Shown here in pieces: positions 3,840 to 18,706 of a DNA stretch of 33,554 nt; the stretch's first letter is position 1, and the number at the start of each line of letters is the position of its first letter. The position numbers and the translations under genes are program-made. The notes beneath the pieces were generated by a model. It saw only the letters and a program-made list of their open reading frames with translations. It was not told the DNA's origin and did no database searches. Source of the DNA: a virus (taxonomy: Duplodnaviria; Heunggongvirae; Uroviricota; Caudoviricetes); IMG/VR virus record IMGVR_UViG_2648501235_000001, positions 1-33,554 of that record. One strand, 5' to 3'.

Positions 3840-4346
3840 TTAAATTGCGTGAATAGCGTGACGAGGGAAGGGGAGAGTTACTGGTGCAAAGGGTATATCG
3901 TCGTCAAAATCCATCGGAGGTTCGTTGTGTTGTGCTGGTGATGATTGCTGCTGTGGCTTCTGTGATTGCCTGCTGGCTGCTTGTTGTTTGCTGTCGCCAA
4001 TGCCGCCAAGCATTTGCATCACGCCATTAATTCCGACATGAACCTCGGTTGTGTAACGGTCTTGCCCTGACTGGTCTTTCCACTTTCTGGTTCTCAGCAT
4101 TCCCTCGAAATAAATCTGATCACCTTTTTTCACATACTGCCCCACGACCTCAGCCAGTTTCCCGGATACAGCAACACGATGCCATTCAGTCAATTCCTTT
4201 TGCTCGCCAGTATTTTTATCTCGCCATTGTTCTGACGTGGCTATTGTCAGATTAGCGAACGCTGTTCCTGATGGTGAGTATCGAACTTCCGGGTCTTGTC
4301 CTACCCGACCAAGGATAATCACCTTATTTACGCCTCTGCTTGCCAT
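3840..4346 (-). CDS. ssb: Single-stranded DNA-binding protein (SSB), with 15-residue extension after the conserved DDDIPF tail
   Basis: [23 protein letters not shown]...TEWHRVAV...QDRYTTEV...[11 protein letters not shown] closely matches E. coli SSB (OB fold and acidic tip). Translation continues [15 protein letters not shown] before TAA at 3840-3842. Confidence 0.9.
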
Positions 4347-5054
4347 TTATGCCGCCTGTTTTAGTTCGTTAACTCTGATGTTCATTACCTGAACGCATTT
4401 AGCCTGCGCCTCCTCGTTGCCAGCCATTAATTGCCAGTCACGCTGATAACGCTCGATGAGTTTTTTCTTGTCAGTTTCTGTTGATGCATAATCGCTGAAG
4501 TCTTTCAGGATTTGTTCGCAGTCAACCGATGGAGATTTCTGGTTGGTATTTTCTGGTGATGGTTTGTTATCTGATGCTGGGATTGCCCATCCCGGCAGCG
4601 ATGGAGGGAGCCAGTAAAATCCTGTTCCATCCTTCAGTTTTGCCCTGTGCCACCCCTGCTTTTTATCGAGAGATGTTTGTGCGAAACCTTCCTCAAGGTT
4701 ATACAGATACCGACCGATTCCCCACTGAACGGCAGCGCGCTTCATTGCGCCGGAACGACCACCTTTGACGGCTTCTACCTGCGTGTTTTCAGCAGCATCC
4801 CATTTGGTTACCCATTCGGAATCAATCCTGATTGATATGCCGCATTCAACGCCTCCGTTGTTGGGAATATCGCGGTATTCATTGCGCCATCCTGCTTTGC
4901 CGCAAACATCGTCCAGGCGTTTCATGATTGCCCTGTTCGTGACATAAGCCAGCACCATAGCCCACACCTTGCCATCGCGTGTTTTACCGCTTTGCTGTAT
5001 TCTCCATTCTATATCTTCAGGGCTGAATGGCTCATCGAATTTATTCAAATCCAT
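4347..5054 (-). CDS. Putative phage single-strand annealing protein (Rad52/Erf-like class, tentative) forming a module with ssb
   Basis: 235 aa, ATG at 5054 with GAGGTG SD; its stop abuts the ssb start (4346/4347), a typical SSAP-SSB arrangement. Family inferred from position and general resemblance only; it is clearly not RecT or lambda Bet by sequence. Confidence 0.55.
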   Translation of the reverse strand: MDLNKFDEPFSPEDIEWRIQQSGKTRDGKVWAMVLAYVTNRAIMKRLDDVCGKAGWRNEYRDIPNNGGVECGISIRIDSEWVTKWDAAENTQVEAVKGGRSGAMKRAAVQWGIGRYLYNLEEGFAQTSLDKKQGWHRAKLKDGTGFYWLPPSLPGWAIPASDNKPSPENTNQKSPSVDCEQILKDFSDYASTETDKKKLIERYQRDWQLMAGNEEAQAKCVQVMNIRVNELKQAA

Positions 5055-14864: not shown

Positions 14865-15049
14865 ACGCCACAATTCAAACGATACCAGAGCTTCTTATCC
14901 AGACACGAGGTAATCAGACCGAAGTGGCAAGGATGCTTTCCTGCGCAAGAGGAACAGTGCTCAAGTACAACCGAGACAGCAAAGGTGAGCGTCACGTAAT
15001 AGTTAACGGCGTCCTGATGGTAACGCCAGGCAAAAAGGGAAGACGATGA
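14861..15049 (+). CDS. ninH: NinH
   Basis: ...TIPELLIQTRGNQTEVARMLSCARGTVLKYNRDSKGERHVIVNGVLMV parallels lambda NinH (...GNQTEVARRLKCSRGTVRKY...). Confidence 0.75.
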   Translation: MNATIQTIPELLIQTRGNQTEVARMLSCARGTVLKYNRDSKGERHVIVNGVLMVTPGKKGRR

Positions 15050-15669
15050 GACTCGAAAGCGTAGCTAAATTTCATTCGCCAAAAAGCCCGATGATGAGCG
15101 ACTCACCACGGGCCACGGCTTCTGACTCTCTTTCCGGTACTGATGTGATGGCTGCTATGGGGATGGCGCAATCACAAGCCGGATTCGGAATGGCTGCATT
15201 CTACGGTAAGCACGAACTCAGCCAGAACGACAAACAAAAGGCTATCAACTATCTGATGCAATTTGCACACAAGGTATCGGGGAAATACCGTGGCGTGGCA
15301 AAGCTTGAAGGAAATACTAAGGCAAAGGTACTGCAAGTGCTCGCAACATTCGCTTATGCGGATTATTGCCGTAGTGCCGCTACGCCGGGCGCAAGATGCA
15401 GAGATTGCCACGGTACAGGCCGTGCGGTTGATATAGCCAAAACAGAGCAGTGGGGGATAGTTGCTGAGAAAGAGTGCGGAAGATGTAAAGGCGTCGGTTA
15501 TTCAAGAATGCCAGCAAGCGCCGCATATCGCGCTGTGACGATGCTAATCCCAAACCTTACCCAACCCACCTGGTCACGCACTGTTAAGCCGCTGTATGAC
15601 GCTCTGGTTGTGCAATGCCACAAGGAAGAGTCAATCGCAGACAACATTTTGAATGCGATCACACGTTAG
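15046..15669 (+). CDS. Q: Late-gene antiterminator Q, lambda type
   Basis: 207 aa MRLESVAKFHSPKSPMMSDSPRATASDSLSG...CRDCHGTGRAVD...CGRCKGVGYSRMP..., near-identical to lambda Q as recalled. Confidence 0.9.
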   Translation: MRLESVAKFHSPKSPMMSDSPRATASDSLSGTDVMAAMGMAQSQAGFGMAAFYGKHELSQNDKQKAINYLMQFAHKVSGKYRGVAKLEGNTKAKVLQVLATFAYADYCRSAATPGARCRDCHGTGRAVDIAKTEQWGIVAEKECGRCKGVGYSRMPASAAYRAVTMLIPNLTQPTWSRTVKPLYDALVVQCHKEESIADNILNAITR

Positions 15670-15711
15670 CGCCATGATTGCCACGGATGGCAACATATTA
15701 ACGGCATAATA

Positions 15712-15765
15712 TTGACTTTTTGAATAACTTTGGGGAAACTTGACACCAATAATGGGCGTTTTTTA
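15712..15765 (+). promoter_or_regulatory. Late promoter pR' with qut site
   Basis: TTGACTTTTTGAATAACTTTGGGGAAACTTGACACCAATAATGGG parallels lambda pR' TTGACTTATTGAATAAAATTGGGTAAATTTGACTCAACGATGGG; similarity to lambda ends shortly after the initial transcribed region. Confidence 0.6.
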
Positions 15766-15947
15766 CATGTCATTGATGAGTCTCAATAACCTGCCGCCGA
15801 GTAGTTTTTATGCTCTGAATTGTATTTGTGTAGTAAACATGCTGACTGCAATGTAATAGAGTTTTTTAGCCTGTAACCTCTTGACGGCATTGAATTGCTT
15901 TTGTTATGAGTTGTAAGCCAATGTTATCATCTTGTATTGGGGTGGTT

Positions 15948-16664
15948 ATGAAGGATGGTGCGCTGCTCAGGAGTTCTTCACTTTTTATTGCCTACATGGG
16001 ATGCCTTGGATGGGGGAGTGCTTATTTCTATGGATGGGGTACTTCTTTTTACTACGGCTTCCCATGGTGGATTGTAGGTGCAGGTGTTGATGATGTTGCC
16101 AGAAGTTTATTTTTTGCAGTTATCGTCATTGCTATATTTCTTATCGGTTGGGGTATTGGTGTTGTATTCTTTTTCGCAGTGAAAAGAAAACATTCTATGC
16201 AAGAGCTAAATGTATTTCGCCTTTATTTTGCTGTGGAATTATTGTTTATGCCGGCAATTATTGAGTTTTCTATATTGAGACAGAAGATTCAGGTACCTCT
16301 TTTGCTACTGTCAGCAGCGATTGCGCTGGCGGTTACAATTTCGATAAGATCTTATGGGCGATTTTTATCGGTATCATGCTTCTATGATAAGCCATTTATA
16401 AAAAAACATTTTTTTGAGATTGTGATGATTGCTTTTGTGGCATATTTCTGGCTTTTTTCATTTCTGACAGGATATTACAAACCGCAGTTTAAGAAAGAAT
16501 ATGAAATGATTAATTATAATGATGGTTGGTATTATGTTCTTGCTCGTTATGATAATTGTCTGGTTTTGTCTACTTCTTTCAATGCAGGTAGTAAAAGGTT
16601 TGTCATTTATCAATCAGCACAAGATAAGAATCTTCAGGTTGATATTGTAAGGACCAGAATTTAA
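15948..16664 (+). CDS. Uncharacterised multi-pass (about 5 TM) inner-membrane protein; AT-rich cargo gene between pR' and the lysis cassette
   Basis: Open frame 15906-16664. Start is ambiguous: ATGs at 15906, 15921 and 15948, only the last with a weak G-rich SD. Hydrophobic segments LFFAVIVIAIFLIGWGIGVVFFFAV, LYFAVELLFMPAIIEFSIL, VPLLLLSAAIALAVTISI, FFEIVMIAFVAYFWLFSFL. About 27% GC in a sampled stretch. Confidence 0.55.
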   Translation: MKDGALLRSSSLFIAYMGCLGWGSAYFYGWGTSFYYGFPWWIVGAGVDDVARSLFFAVIVIAIFLIGWGIGVVFFFAVKRKHSMQELNVFRLYFAVELLFMPAIIEFSILRQKIQVPLLLLSAAIALAVTISIRSYGRFLSVSCFYDKPFIKKHFFEIVMIAFVAYFWLFSFLTGYYKPQFKKEYEMINYNDGWYYVLARYDNCLVLSTSFNAGSKRFVIYQSAQDKNLQVDIVRTRI

Positions 16665-16797
16665 TTGGCTGCATAAATAATATTTTAAGTTGCAAGTTGG
16701 CTATTCGTAGGAATAGAACCTTAGGCATGCTGAATGCGTTTTCTGAACATTGTTTTATAAACTGTGTCTGCTTGCTGTTGTGATCCTGCTTTTAGTG

Positions 16798-16908
16798 ATG
16801 GTGATGATGGATTTCACCAGCAGGATAATGTTGGTACTGACTGATGGCGCTCTGGTCTGCGGCATTGTGGTATTGCTGTGGCCGATGATGAAAGAACAGA
16901 ATGAATAA
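16798..16908 (+). CDS. Possible small hydrophobic peptide (36 aa; alternative ATG at 16828 with AGGA SD gives 26 aa)
   Basis: MVMMDFTSRIMLVLTDGALVCGIVVLLWPMMKEQNE: one TM-like segment with a charged C-terminus. Below ORF-track cutoff; no homology evidence. Confidence 0.2.
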   Translation: MVMMDFTSRIMLVLTDGALVCGIVVLLWPMMKEQNE

Positions 16909-17094
16909 TCCTTGACTTTTTTGTTTACTGTTTATTAAAAAATCAACCGCATGGTGAATCCTCCTTGGAGGGGCTAAATGATCGAGTTTTAAGGGCACGT
17001 AGCGAGTTCTGTTTGATCATTGCAGAACTTAGCGGGAGGCGCCATGCGTACATCACTAATGTTATTTCCTTCTATCATTTTCCTTGTGAGTTCT

Positions 17095-17121
17095 GGCTGC
17101 GCATGGCGCGGCCTTTTTTTT
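17095..17121 (+). terminator. Strong intrinsic terminator (plus strand) within the Q-S spacer
   Basis: 8-bp stem GGCTGCGC/GCGCGGCC (one G-U pair) with 3-nt loop (17095-17113) followed by TTTTTTTT (17114-17121). Confidence 0.6.
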
Positions 17122-17466
17122 ATGACCTGCCACTGGCAGATGGTCATCCTGTGATTTGATTCCGGTTCCGGCTTTTTAACTCTGTTCCTGTACACGGGAG
17201 AAATTCTATGTCGATTAATCGTTATGATATTGGTTACAAGAAGTACCACGTATTGTGTTGAGATAGAAAGCCTGGTGCCAGAGGTAAATGCAGCAGCATA
17301 ATAAAAAAGAGCCAGCGCAGAAGAGAACGGGTAAAAGAGTCTGCGCTGGCGTGGGGATATTCCCCGTGGAGAAATGATATGTAACACACATCGGGAACCT
17401 TTCTATATAAACATTATCATTATTGTCAATCATAACAGTCAGGTATTATGACGTTTATGCATCAGG

Positions 17467-17497
17467 GCCATCAGGAATTAACTGGTGGCTTTTTATT
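17467..17497 (+). terminator. Candidate intrinsic terminator 35 nt upstream of the holin start
   Basis: Stem GCCATCAG/CTGGTGGC (17467-17474/17482-17489, one G-U) with 7-nt loop, followed by TTTTTATT. Confidence 0.4.
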
Positions 17498-17529
17498 GTT
17501 GTCAGCTTCCGGATAACGGGAGACGGGGT

Positions 17530-17745
17530 ATGTACCAGATGGAAAAAATCACAACAGGTGTGTCATACACCACGTCAGCGGTGGGGACGGGATACTGGCT
17601 ACTGCAGTTGCTGGACAAAGTCTCCCCATCCCAGTGGGTGGCAATAGGCGTATTGGGTAGCCTGGTGTTTGGCTTGCTGACGTATCTGACAAACCTTTAT
17701 TTCAAGATTAAAGAAGATAAGCGTAAGGCTGCGAGAGGTGAATAA
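17530..17745 (+). CDS. S: Class II holin (pinholin), phage 21 S type, with dual-start motif
   Basis: [71 protein letters not shown] parallels phage 21 S as recalled; ATGs at 17530 and 17539; GGAG SD. The six-frame ORF start at 17485 is GTG. Confidence 0.85.
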
Positions 17746-18242
17746 TGTCGCCATCATTACGCAGGGCTGTTGCTGCTGCTATTGGTGGTGGGGCTGTTGC
17801 CATAGCGTCTGTGCTCATCACTGGTCCGAGTGGTGACGATGGCCTGGAAGGTGTCAGCTACATACCATACGAAGATATCGTTGGCGTATGGACTGTATGT
17901 CACGGACACACCGGAAAAGACATCATTCCCGGTAAAACGTATACCGAAGCAGAATGCAAAGCCCTCCTGAATAAAGACCTTGCCATGGTCGCCAGACAAA
18001 TTAACCCGTACATCAAAGTCGATATACCGGAAACAACGCGCGGCGCTCTTTACTCGCTCGTTTACAACGTGGGCGCTGGTAATTTCAGAACATCGACGCT
18101 TCTTCGCAAAATAAACCAGGGTGATATCAAAGGCGCATGTGACCAGCTACGTCGCTGGACATACGCTGGCGGTAAGCAATGGAAAGGGCTGATGACCCGT
18201 CGTGATATTGAGCGTGAAGTCTGTTTGTGGGGGCAGCAATGA
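17745..18242 (+). CDS. R: SAR endolysin (signal-anchor-release lysozyme), phage 21 R type
   Basis: N-terminal SAR domain [22 protein letters not shown] followed by a lysozyme domain ([23 protein letters not shown]...); start overlaps the holin stop (TAATG). Confidence 0.9.
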
Positions 18243-18706
18243 GCAGGGTAACCGCGATTATCTCCGCTCTGGTTATTTGCATCATCCTCTGCCTGTCATG
18301 GGCTGTTAATCATTACCGTGATAACGCCATCGCCTACAAAGAGCAGCGTGATAAAAAAGTCAGTGAGCTGAAGCAGGCGACCGCCACCATTACTGACATG
18401 CAGCAACGCCAGCGTGCTGCTGATGTACTCGATGCTAAATACACGAAGGAGTTGGCTGATGCGAAAGCTGAAAATGATGCTCTTCGGCGCAAGCTTGATA
18501 ATGGTGGTCGGGTGCTCGTCAAAGGAAAATGCTCTGTGCCATCCTCAGCCGAAACCTCCAGCGCCTCCGGCATGGGCAATGATGCCACCGTCGAACTCTC
18601 TCCAGTTGCTGGACGAAACGTTCTCGGTATCCGGGACGGAATTATCCGTGACCAAACAGCACTGAGAACGCTTCAGGAGTACATCAGGACGCAATGCCTG
18701 AAATAA
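18239..18706 (+). CDS. Rz: Spanin inner-membrane subunit Rz (i-spanin)
   Basis: [34 protein letters not shown]... (N-terminal TM plus coiled coil) parallels lambda Rz; ATG overlaps the R stop (ATGA). Confidence 0.85.
18459..18665 (+). CDS. Rz1: Spanin outer-membrane lipoprotein subunit Rz1 (o-spanin), embedded in the +1 frame of Rz
   Basis: [44 protein letters not shown]...: lipobox VVGC and Pro-rich mature region as in lambda Rz1; AAGGAG SD 8 nt upstream. Confidence 0.75.

Follow-up and report, generated by a model that had tools for sequence, protein, structure and literature searches.

A TfpB/STM1630-family membrane protein gene in the Q-to-holin interval of a lambdoid prophage

Organization of the interval between Q and the lysis genes

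We analyzed a 33,554-nucleotide stretch of viral DNA (hereafter, the window), focusing on the interval between a lambda-type antiterminator gene Q and a phage-21-type lysis cassette (Table 1). Similarity to lambda-type phages extends over Q and qut and stops at ~15749–15756, in keeping with a preliminary description of this DNA, which had placed the end just after pR'/qut at about 15765. The pR' promoter comprises a −35 hexamer TTGACT (15712–15717) and a −10 hexamer GAAACT (15735–15740) that is weaker than its counterpart in lambda. The inferred transcription start lies at ~15748, and a −10-like pause element, AATAAT, occupies 15748–15753. On the far side of the interval, the lysis cassette proved to be of the phage 21 type, as had been described, and consists of the pinholin gene S21 (17530–17745, plus strand; Pfam PF04971, E 1e-32), a SAR-type endolysin gene (17745–18242, plus strand; lysozyme-family matches), and Rz (18227–18706, plus strand).

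Table 1. Features of the Q-to-holin interval and its borders in the window
Feature	Position	Strand	Basis
lambda-type antiterminator Q gene	15046..15669	+	Pfam PF03589 Antiterm, E 3e-56; RefSeq 'antitermination protein'
pR'/qut	15712..15753	+	aligned with annotated pR'/qut of phage mEp234
degenerate phage-82/434-type tR' remnant, AACCTGCCGCCGAGTAG-TTTTT	15788..15809	+	alignment with phage 434
leader travelling with the cargo gene	15810..15947	+	block CCTCTTGACG..TTTGTTATG; near-identical behind both Q types
TfpB/STM1630-family inner-membrane protein gene (cargo gene)	15948..16664	+	238 aa; five helices and C-terminal SH3-like beta domain, predicted
DUF3927 (P1 TciB-like) small two-helix membrane protein gene	16750..16908	+	Pfam PF13064, E 3e-14
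STnc100/PasD-family sRNA locus	16919..17124	+	Rfam RF02076 full-length, 37.7 bits (gathering 47), E 1e-6
weak Esr41-like element with its own terminator	17301..17390	-	Rfam RF02676, 32.3 bits (gathering 102)
second strong intrinsic terminator, directly 5' of the holin gene	17464..17500	+	-15.7 kcal/mol, then U-rich tract
phage-21-type lysis cassette	17530..18706	+	pinholin S21, SAR-type endolysin, Rz; matches 434 annotation

The gap had been described as holding a single substantial open reading frame, a hydrophobic protein gene that we refer to as the cargo gene. This account was incomplete, as the interval also contains a DUF3927 gene, an STnc100/PasD sRNA locus, an Esr41-like element, and two strong terminators. 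The DUF3927 gene has a normal third-position GC content (GC3) of 58% and is the next gene after the TfpB-like one in all E. coli prophage loci that are long enough. We considered it as an obligate partner of the cargo gene and rejected this idea, since it accompanies only close E. coli prophage copies and is missing beside divergent homologues. The sRNA locus has its syntenic counterpart in pasD of phage 2B8; PasD is an abundant RNA in EPEC (both preprint 10.64898/2026.05.13.724894), and EHEC cultured in LB transcribes STnc100-type RNAs from this position (PMC5331693). The terminator of this locus is formed by a hairpin at 17095–17113 followed by U8 (−15.2 kcal/mol) and spans to 17121. The Esr41-like element lies within a doubtful 132-aa reverse ORF (16989–17387), which PGAP annotates as 'hypothetical protein'.

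The cargo gene and its product

The cargo ORF spans 15906–16664 on the plus strand and offers three in-frame ATG codons, at 15906, 15921, and 15948, among which the preliminary description had left the start ambiguous. All 23 aligned homologues (39–94% identity) begin at the position of ATG 15948, which is also the RefSeq start, giving a product of 238 aa. The annotators of phage 434 chose the ATG equivalent to 15921, yielding 247 aa. The 23-homologue alignment has almost no indels, a mean column identity of 59%, and 38 invariant columns. Comparison with the E. albertii and Escherichia sp. copies gave dN/dS values of 0.065 and 0.094, respectively, indicating that the gene is under selection. 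The frame is intact in 80 of 97 full-length IMG/VR copies, so that disruption in relatives, which would have spoken against a translated gene, is confined to a minority; the truncation of the other 17 prophage copies implies that the gene is often expendable. These data show that the segment 15948–16664 is truly coding and subject to purifying selection.

The gene is also compositionally foreign. Its GC content is 36.3% compared with 50.6% for the window, its GC3 is 31% compared with 48–67% for the neighboring genes, and it ranks in the bottom 1% for GC among all 717-nt segments, which bears out quantitatively the deviation suspected at the outset. The GC minimum per 100 nt is 27%, at 16442. 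The earlier characterization of some 1.7 kb as very AT-rich holds for 15757–16749 only, because the interval 15770–17530 has an overall GC content of 39.5%.

To describe the product, we built an AlphaFold2 model from a 37-sequence alignment. The model (pLDDT 80, pTM 0.74) contains five helices, at residues 10–36, 47–78, 89–111, 116–136, and 155–181, and a C-terminal domain of five beta strands at residues 184–235, which form a barrel of ~55 aa. This matches well the about five transmembrane (TM) helices and the C-terminal tail of about 55 aa expected from the translation. Kyte–Doolittle analysis recovers four clear TM segments in addition to an aromatic and Gly-rich first helix, and the loop charges agree with an N-in, C-out topology. 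We therefore propose that the product would reside in the host inner membrane, with its N-terminus inside and the small barrel at its C-terminus located in the periplasm.

A sequence-profile search of the PDB with the product returned no match at E ≤ 10, and a Foldseek search of the model against BFVD returned nothing at E ≤ 0.001; the fold, as predicted, has neither a solved nor a viral counterpart. Sequence comparison, in contrast, placed the protein in a family. RefSeq names the 238-aa protein 'STM1630 family protein', and a precomputed assignment to PF27470 (Pfam TfpB) is attached to 103 of 103 homologue matches, STM1630 included. The product shares the family architecture: ~240 aa, a conserved aromatic/Gly motif near the N-terminus, several TM helices, and a short beta domain at the C-terminus. 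Pfam-A and NCBIfam releases predating the PF27470 and STM1630 models gave no real match, and among PHROGs the product matches only families of unknown function. The family is small, with only 73 clusters at 50% identity among 1.84 billion proteins. Profile searching also retrieves members from Neisseria and Pasteurellaceae, and outside Enterobacterales the family occurs in Moraxellaceae, Neisseriaceae, and Pasteurellaceae only; motif and architecture persist down to 12–30% identity in four bacterial families. The literature reports no function for any member. The cargo gene is therefore not new but belongs to a catalogued family of uncharacterised membrane proteins (PF27470 TfpB/STM1630), and no clear homologue with an established function, which would have overturned the cargo reading, emerged.

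Relatives and their genomic settings

The closest named relative is CPT_434_68 of phage 434 ('putative membrane protein', UMO75332.1), with 99.6% protein identity to the window gene, and the copy in phage 2B8 is 97.6% identical. In both phages, as in the window, the gene comes after Q and is followed by the same DUF3927 gene and the same terminator. Phage 434 differs in that its Q is Q82-like and the terminator ahead of the gene is intact, whereas the window has a lambda-type Q and a degenerate terminator; 434 also carries a SASA/NanS-p esterase gene downstream, which the window lacks. The same gene is thus found behind both lambda-type and Q82-type Q, and a Yersinia homologue lies behind a PF06530-type Q. 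On ETEC plasmids, a 58%-identical paralogue adjoins eltAB and estB, and the leader block CCTCTTGACG..TTTGTTATG is common to the window and this paralogue. Together with the Salmonella orthologue described below, which is located in an island, these settings show that the gene is mobile. Among 5,426 complete E. coli genomes, 2,942 contain matches to the interval, and at least 586 carry 80% or more of it. Homologues in Neisseria, Avibacterium, Aggregatibacter, Glaesserella, and Pasteurella are solitary amid housekeeping genes, the Aggregatibacter copy occupying one chromosomal locus shared by several strains.

STM1630 of Salmonella Typhimurium (238 aa) is 46% identical over its full length and has the architecture of the window product. 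Unlike the window gene, it is chromosomal, with no prophage, and adjoins the SPI-2 effector gene sseJ. It is down-regulated together with SPI-2 genes in avirulent regulator mutants (PMC2639726). STM1630 has its own promoter and was picked for study from intramacrophage RNA-seq data, and its deletion caused no defect in macrophage replication (bioRxiv 10.1101/689075). Hypermotility of the mutant was reported, yet the phenotypes that a repeat test confirmed do not include it, and we set this trait aside.

The founder of PF27470, TfpB of Moraxella bovis, is 27% identical to the window product over ~240 residues (tblastn E 5e-19). The two proteins have in common the N-terminal motif AY.YGWG...G.PWW and a layout of helices followed by a beta domain. 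The M. bovis gene sits among pilin gene segments beside the piv recombinase gene, whereas the window has no pilin genes.

Compared with the Q-S cargo of Stx and LT-II phages (stx, nanS-p, tRNAs), the window gene has the same slot, a similarly odd composition, and the same dispensability for lytic growth (see below). It differs in two respects: its product is a membrane protein and not a secreted toxin or esterase, and it precedes the first strong terminator predicted after pR', whereas classical cargo lies downstream of tR'.

Predicted expression and proposed role of the cargo gene

The position of the gene relative to the terminators bears on when it may be expressed. In phage 434, tR' has the form AAACCCGCTGCCGAGTGGG-T8, with a hairpin of −12.5 kcal/mol followed by U8. 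The remnant in the window forms no stable terminator hairpin (−3.5 kcal/mol, with a different pairing), and all lambda-Q-type loci in the IMG/VR set show this degenerate form, leader type tracking Q type strictly. No compact hairpin with a U-tract was predicted within 15700–17094; the first strong terminator after pR' is at 17095–17121 and the second at 17464. The lambda pR' promoter is active in lysogens, and we assume the same for the variant in the window. With the 434-type proximal tR' apparently destroyed and the next predicted intrinsic terminator only at 17095, polymerase initiating at pR' would run through the TfpB-like and DUF3927 genes as far as the PasD/STnc100 terminator. On this model, the lysogen would make the cargo without Q, while the lysis genes would still need Q. 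More generally, the lack of a predicted intrinsic terminator between pR' and the gene in lambda-Q-type prophages suggests that they may make the cargo in lysogens without Q. The transcription of STnc100-type RNAs in EHEC and the abundance of PasD in EPEC fit this model. The read-through is a computational prediction, however; the weaker −10 hexamer speaks against it, and two processes could possibly counter it, namely Rho-dependent termination in the 200-nt untranslated leader and H-NS silencing of the AT-rich cargo DNA. The terminator upstream of the gene is intact in Q82-type phages, so expression there must depend on Q or start from an internal promoter. Such a promoter is weakly predicted in the leader; the promoter-like site TTGTTA-18-TATCAT with a preceding TG (15901–15930) is of a kind not enriched over shuffled sequences.

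Phage 434B bears on whether the gene is needed for phage growth. It lacks the gene, as a region of nonhomology (41277–45846 of the record) spans it. This plaque-forming clear mutant carries DLP12 DNA in place of the segment (PMC9119081). By analogy with the 99.6%-identical gene of that other phage, the window gene is presumably dispensable for lytic growth. The preliminary description had read the gene as foreign cargo in the Q-S slot, and four observations agree with it: the compositional island, the presence of the gene behind two unrelated Q types, the homologues outside prophages, and its absence from viable 434B. The first of these corresponds to what is expected of a moron, an atypical insert (36% compared with 51% GC) between phage modules, here Q/pR' and the S21 cassette. 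We hold with moderate confidence that the gene is a dispensable moron in the Q-to-holin slot of lambdoid prophages, encoding a TfpB/STM1630 member that acts in the host inner membrane. The product would act on the host envelope, to the advantage of lysogens living in an animal host, and would take no part in virion assembly or lysis; it might modify the envelope. The down-regulation of STM1630 along with SPI-2 genes and its selection from intramacrophage data fit a role directed at the host.

Several other roles were weighed against this reading. A product that blocks the entry of incoming phage DNA or triggers abortive infection, as the preliminary description had also proposed, would suit a patchily distributed, AT-rich gene in a prophage accessory slot and a predicted inner-membrane protein with a periplasmic domain. 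Moreover, the homologue in K. electrica adjoins icd and an AAA-ATPase/small-protein pair resembling defence islands. However, no defence-system model in PADLOC-DB matched the cargo or DUF3927 protein at E ≤ 1, nor did any PHROG of known function. The Pasteurellaceae and Neisseria copies generally sit among housekeeping genes instead of in variable islands, the Aggregatibacter locus being the same in several strains, the Salmonella orthologue belongs to the regulator-dependent gene set of SPI-2, and the ETEC plasmid copies adjoin toxin genes. We consider a role in superinfection exclusion or anti-phage defence unlikely. Even less probable, in our view, is a modulator of the late phage cycle (lysis timing, holin control, or DNA entry and exit) made only after Q antitermination. 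The holin gene is 865 nt away with two strong terminators in between, 434B plaques without the gene, homologues exist as solitary chromosomal genes where there is no phage, and neither Pfam nor PHROGs revealed similarity to holin, antiholin, or spanin families. These points make the lysis or entry role suggested earlier unlikely, despite the location of the gene in the late operon between pR' and holin, its pairing with DUF3927 as a second small membrane protein, and the intact upstream terminator of Q82-type phages, with which most transcription would need Q.

A further alternative is an accessory factor of type IV pili or secretion pseudopili that acts on prepilin-like proteins, as proposed for TfpY/FimB-like proteins, with the phage copy modulating host pili. 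Members outside Enterobacterales are confined to Moraxellaceae, Neisseriaceae, and Pasteurellaceae, all of which make type IV or competence pili. The founder tfpB lies between two halves of the pilin gene in the Moraxella inversion locus, adjoining pilin genes in a manner comparable to TfpY-type accessory genes, and TfpY, TfpX, TfpZ, and FimB are, like the window product as predicted, small proteins that cross the inner membrane several times and end in a periplasmic domain. However, a pilin N-terminal motif within 6 kb was found only at the Moraxella loci, with none in the window or at more than 20 other loci, and tfpB of M. lacunata is frameshifted. TfpY-like proteins are described as combining three TM helices with a larger domain of mixed alpha/beta structure, and as always encoded beside pilA (PMC11841053), compared with the five helices and ~55-aa barrel modelled here. 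We rejected the pilin link for the family as a Moraxella-only feature and give the pilus role a low probability. It is very improbable that the ORF is a decaying, functionless passenger hitch-hiking with the neighboring sRNA and lysis genes. Such a reading would account for the truncated copies and for the Salmonella studies without a phenotype, but it conflicts with the low dN/dS, with the retention of motif and architecture in highly divergent members, and with a confident, co-evolution-driven structure model that improved with a deeper alignment.

The reading of the gene as a dispensable moron can be extended to a more ambitious, rather speculative scenario, to which we assign a smallish probability. 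Here, pR' would drive a ~1.4-kb transcript in lysogens comprising the TfpB-like gene, the DUF3927 gene, and the PasD/STnc100 sRNA, the terminator of the sRNA would now serve as tR', and the late leader would have become a lysogenic-conversion platform. Its product, an inner-membrane factor of novel fold recurring beside eltAB, beside sseJ, and in the stx slot, would aid host colonisation.

As it stands, the window gene is an ordinary member of a catalogued, uncharacterised family that is also present in the classical phage 434. This family recurs beside the heat-labile toxin genes of ETEC, beside a SPI-2 effector gene of Salmonella, and inside the pilin switch of Moraxella. Were an activity defined, a gene that repeatedly accompanies virulence loci could be annotated. 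If the predicted read-through is true, it would explain how late-region cargo is expressed without induction in non-Stx lambdoid prophages, and possibly also how the abundant PasD/STnc100 sRNAs are made in uninduced cells.

Coding sequence and predicted product

The open reading frame between the late antiterminator gene Q and the lysis genes offers the three in-frame ATGs listed in the preliminary description. Alignment of 23 homologues (39–94% identity) places a uniform start at the Met of ATG 15948, so the product comprises 238 aa. The RefSeq protein WP_001299184.1 has the identical start, and a Shine-Dalgarno-like G-rich run (GGGGTGG) lies 3–9 nt upstream of this codon. Quantitatively, the GC content of the gene is 36.3%, compared with 50.6% for the window, which places it in the bottom 1% of same-length windows, and its GC3 is 31%, compared with 48–67% in the adjoining genes. 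The approximately 27% GC first quoted for this region is a 100-nt minimum, at 16442. This composition would fit a low-GC mucosal proteobacterial source, such as Pasteurellaceae or Moraxellaceae.

Compared with the gene in E. albertii and in a second Escherichia species, dN/dS was 0.065 and 0.094. Among 112 IMG/VR stretches retrieved by a 29-mer from the gene leader, the reading frame is intact in 80 of the 97 full-length copies and truncated in 17; the frame disruption in relatives that was proposed as evidence against translation thus occurs, in the smaller share of copies. Judged from these comparisons, the ORF is a real gene under maintaining selection, yet expendable in a minority of prophages. 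As a feature it is already known, since its sequence and annotation exist and curated families include it; phages 434 and 2B8 carry the same gene at 99.6 and 97.6% identity, respectively.

AlphaFold2 gave a pLDDT of 67 on the 23-sequence alignment, and a pLDDT of 80 with a pTM of 0.74 on a 37-sequence alignment including distant members. The latter model comprises five helices (residues 10–36, 47–78, 89–111, 116–136, and 155–181) and a C-terminal five-strand beta domain (184–235). Lys and Arg residues are concentrated at the N-terminus and in the loops following helices 2 and 4, which, by the positive-inside rule, suggests an N-in, C-out topology with a periplasmic beta domain. The most conserved stretch in the 23-homologue alignment is aromatic- and glycine-rich and spans helix 1 and the next loop (SS..IAY.G.LGWGSAYFYGWG.SFYYGFPWW...G.DD.ARSL). 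The profile and structure searches advocated in the preliminary description returned no resembling solved or viral structure, with zero matches in a PDB profile search and zero at E ≤ 0.001 when the model was compared with BFVD (viral structures) using Foldseek.

Family membership and genomic distribution

Homologues of the protein, including the STM1630-type protein, are assigned in precomputed Pfam data to PF27470, “TfpB”, and RefSeq names the product “STM1630 family protein”. The family is small: a set of 1.84 billion proteins contains 73 clusters of it at 50% identity. Its name derives from the Moraxella gene tfpB, which in M. bovis (261 aa; locus L123, 491-1276) sits between two pilin gene halves; in M. 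lacunata a frameshifted tfpB lies between piv and a pilin gene. The M. lacunata frame stops at 195 aa (locus L125, 6001-6588), so in this sister species the family's founding member is a pseudogene. A general pilin link was rejected as lineage-specific, since the pilin N-terminal motif occurs within 6 kb of the family gene in Moraxella loci only.

The gene stands alone amid housekeeping genes in Neisseria, Avibacterium, Aggregatibacter, Glaesserella, Pasteurella, and their relatives, and several Aggregatibacter strains share one locus. Within Enterobacterales, the gene is mobile: it directly follows Q in prophages of E. coli and Yersinia, neighbours sseJ in Salmonella (STM1630), and lies beside icd in K. 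electrica. A 58%-identical paralogue, seen on more than 900 contigs, lies divergent beside eltAB and near estB on IS-rich ETEC plasmids; on four such contigs (L149-L152) it occupies 4001-4714, IS-flanked, divergent from Enterotoxin_a/b and near STb. The block CCTCTTGACG..TTTGTTATG upstream of the window gene is also conserved upstream of this paralogue and may be regulatory. Together, the shared block and the position beside the LT genes are consistent with a piece of a prophage Q-S region having been part of the LT locus.

Of 5,426 complete E. coli genomes, 2,942 contain sequence matching the 2-kb Q-to-holin interval, and 586 of these 2,942 carry at least 80% of it. A 3054-nt contig labeled “MAG: Veillonella sp.” (L140) matches the E. 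coli prophage Q/TfpB-like/DUF3927 segment at 99.5% identity and almost certainly entered that MAG through contamination with E. coli DNA or through mis-binning. Additional cargo was observed around the same late region in phage 434, with an LpxR lipid A deacylase gene 5' of Q (L002, 1708-2667), and in an E. coli 2022H047 prophage, with NleG and EspJ type III effector genes directly 3' of the holin (L001, 5259-7392).

Organization and predicted transcription of the Q-to-holin interval

Similarity to the lambda-type Q/pR'/qut region stops at about 15749–15756. This boundary, the ORF, and the lysis cassette agree with the preliminary description, whereas its view of the ORF as the only substantial one in the gap does not hold, as a DUF3927 gene, an sRNA locus, and terminators are also present.

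Features of the interval between the pR' region and the lysis cassette
Feature	Position	Strand	Remarks
AT-rich island	15757-16749		remaining gap 43% GC
TfpB-like ORF	15906..16664	+	in-frame ATGs at 15906, 15921, 15948
Rfam STnc100 match, full-length	16919-17124	+	sub-threshold, 37.7 bits vs gathering 47; E 1e-6
132-aa reverse ORF	16989-17387	-	PGAP “hypothetical protein”; encloses Esr41-like match
Esr41-like element, weak	17301-17390	-	32 bits vs 102; own minus-strand terminator
Second strong intrinsic terminator	17464-17500 (alternatively 17464-17492)	+	-15.7 kcal/mol; directly 5' of S21 holin
P21-type holin, then endolysin, Rz	from 17530

In all sufficiently long loci of the E. coli prophage set, a DUF3927 (P1 TciB-like) gene lies 3' of the TfpB-like gene, followed by a SASA/NanS-p esterase gene or, as in the window, a short remnant, and then the S21 holin. 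We rejected DUF3927 as an obligate partner because it is missing beside divergent homologues and has normal GC3. The STnc100-type match terminates in a strong intrinsic terminator (hairpin of -15.2 kcal/mol, then U8). Being 98% identical to the phage 2B8 sequence and syntenic with it, this is the pasD locus. The pasD gene has been described next to Q, immediately upstream of the sialate esterase gene, with PasD related to STnc100 (Zhu, Shabalina and Storz, 2026 preprint, 10.64898/2026.05.13.724894). STnc100/PasD-type RNAs are transcribed by EHEC in LB (PMC5331693) and abundant in EPEC. The phage 434 ORF CPT_434_70 (63-64 aa; window 16965-17159) overlaps this locus and is probably not a gene. 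The reverse ORF is doubtful, as it overlaps the plus-strand sRNA, its terminator, and short NanS-p 5' remnants. The second terminator may mark where a PasA/PasC-type sRNA ends, a type reported beside the holin in the same preprint.

Two leader forms occur upstream of the gene, strictly matched to Q type. With a Q82-like Q (phage 434), the leader opens with an intact terminator (AAACCCGCTGCCGAGTGGG then T8, -12.5 kcal/mol), whereas with a lambda-type Q, as in the window, the homologous sequence is AACCTGCCGCCGAGTAG then T5 and forms no terminator hairpin. Scanning 15700–17094 yielded zero compact hairpins with a U-tract. The related phage mEp234, in contrast, has a proximal tR' hairpin. The window also differs from it in the pR' -10 hexamer (GAAACT vs TAAATT; region 15735-15753) and the sigma-dependent pause element (AATAAT vs AACGAT), and the window-type junction just 3' of the pause element recurs in approximately 70 IMG/VR loci.

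Lambda pR' is constitutive and limited solely by tR'. Given that no intrinsic terminator is predicted before 17095, RNA polymerase from the window pR' would transcribe the TfpB-like and DUF3927 genes, ending at the PasD terminator, and the cargo would be made in lysogens without Q. The GAAACT hexamer is a caveat to this read-through, and Rho-dependent termination and H-NS silencing could limit it. In 434-type phages, expression would instead depend on Q or an internal promoter; the sole candidate for the latter (15901-15930) does not score above chance.

Proposed role of the gene

The best-supported reading, towards which we lean slightly, is dispensable cargo: a protein working in the inner membrane or periplasm of the host cell that would benefit the lysogen when it lives in animals. 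In phage 434B, the whole Q-to-lysis segment, including the gene, is swapped for DLP12 DNA and plaques still form (PMC9119081). STM1630 is among the genes down-regulated with SPI-2 genes in avirulent regulator mutants (PMC2639726); a promoter of its own drives it, intramacrophage RNA-seq data led to its choice for study, and its deletion left intramacrophage replication unaffected (bioRxiv 10.1101/689075). The phenotypes that re-testing confirmed (PMC4534456) did not include the hypermotility that a screen had reported (PMC4219756).

A lysis or virion role, the former raised in the preliminary description as lysis modulation, is argued against by family copies outside phages, by the distance of the gene from the lysis cassette, and by the intervening terminators. 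As for the exclusion or abortive-infection function also suggested there, no PADLOC model matches the protein, and the stable position of the gene on Pasteurellaceae chromosomes argues against a typical defence gene; exclusion is possible, at low probability.

The gene is an ordinary member of an uncharacterised family, its interest raised somewhat by recurrent toxin- and effector-gene neighbourhoods. The terminator-less pR' leader of lambda-Q-type prophages provides one new, testable regulatory lead.
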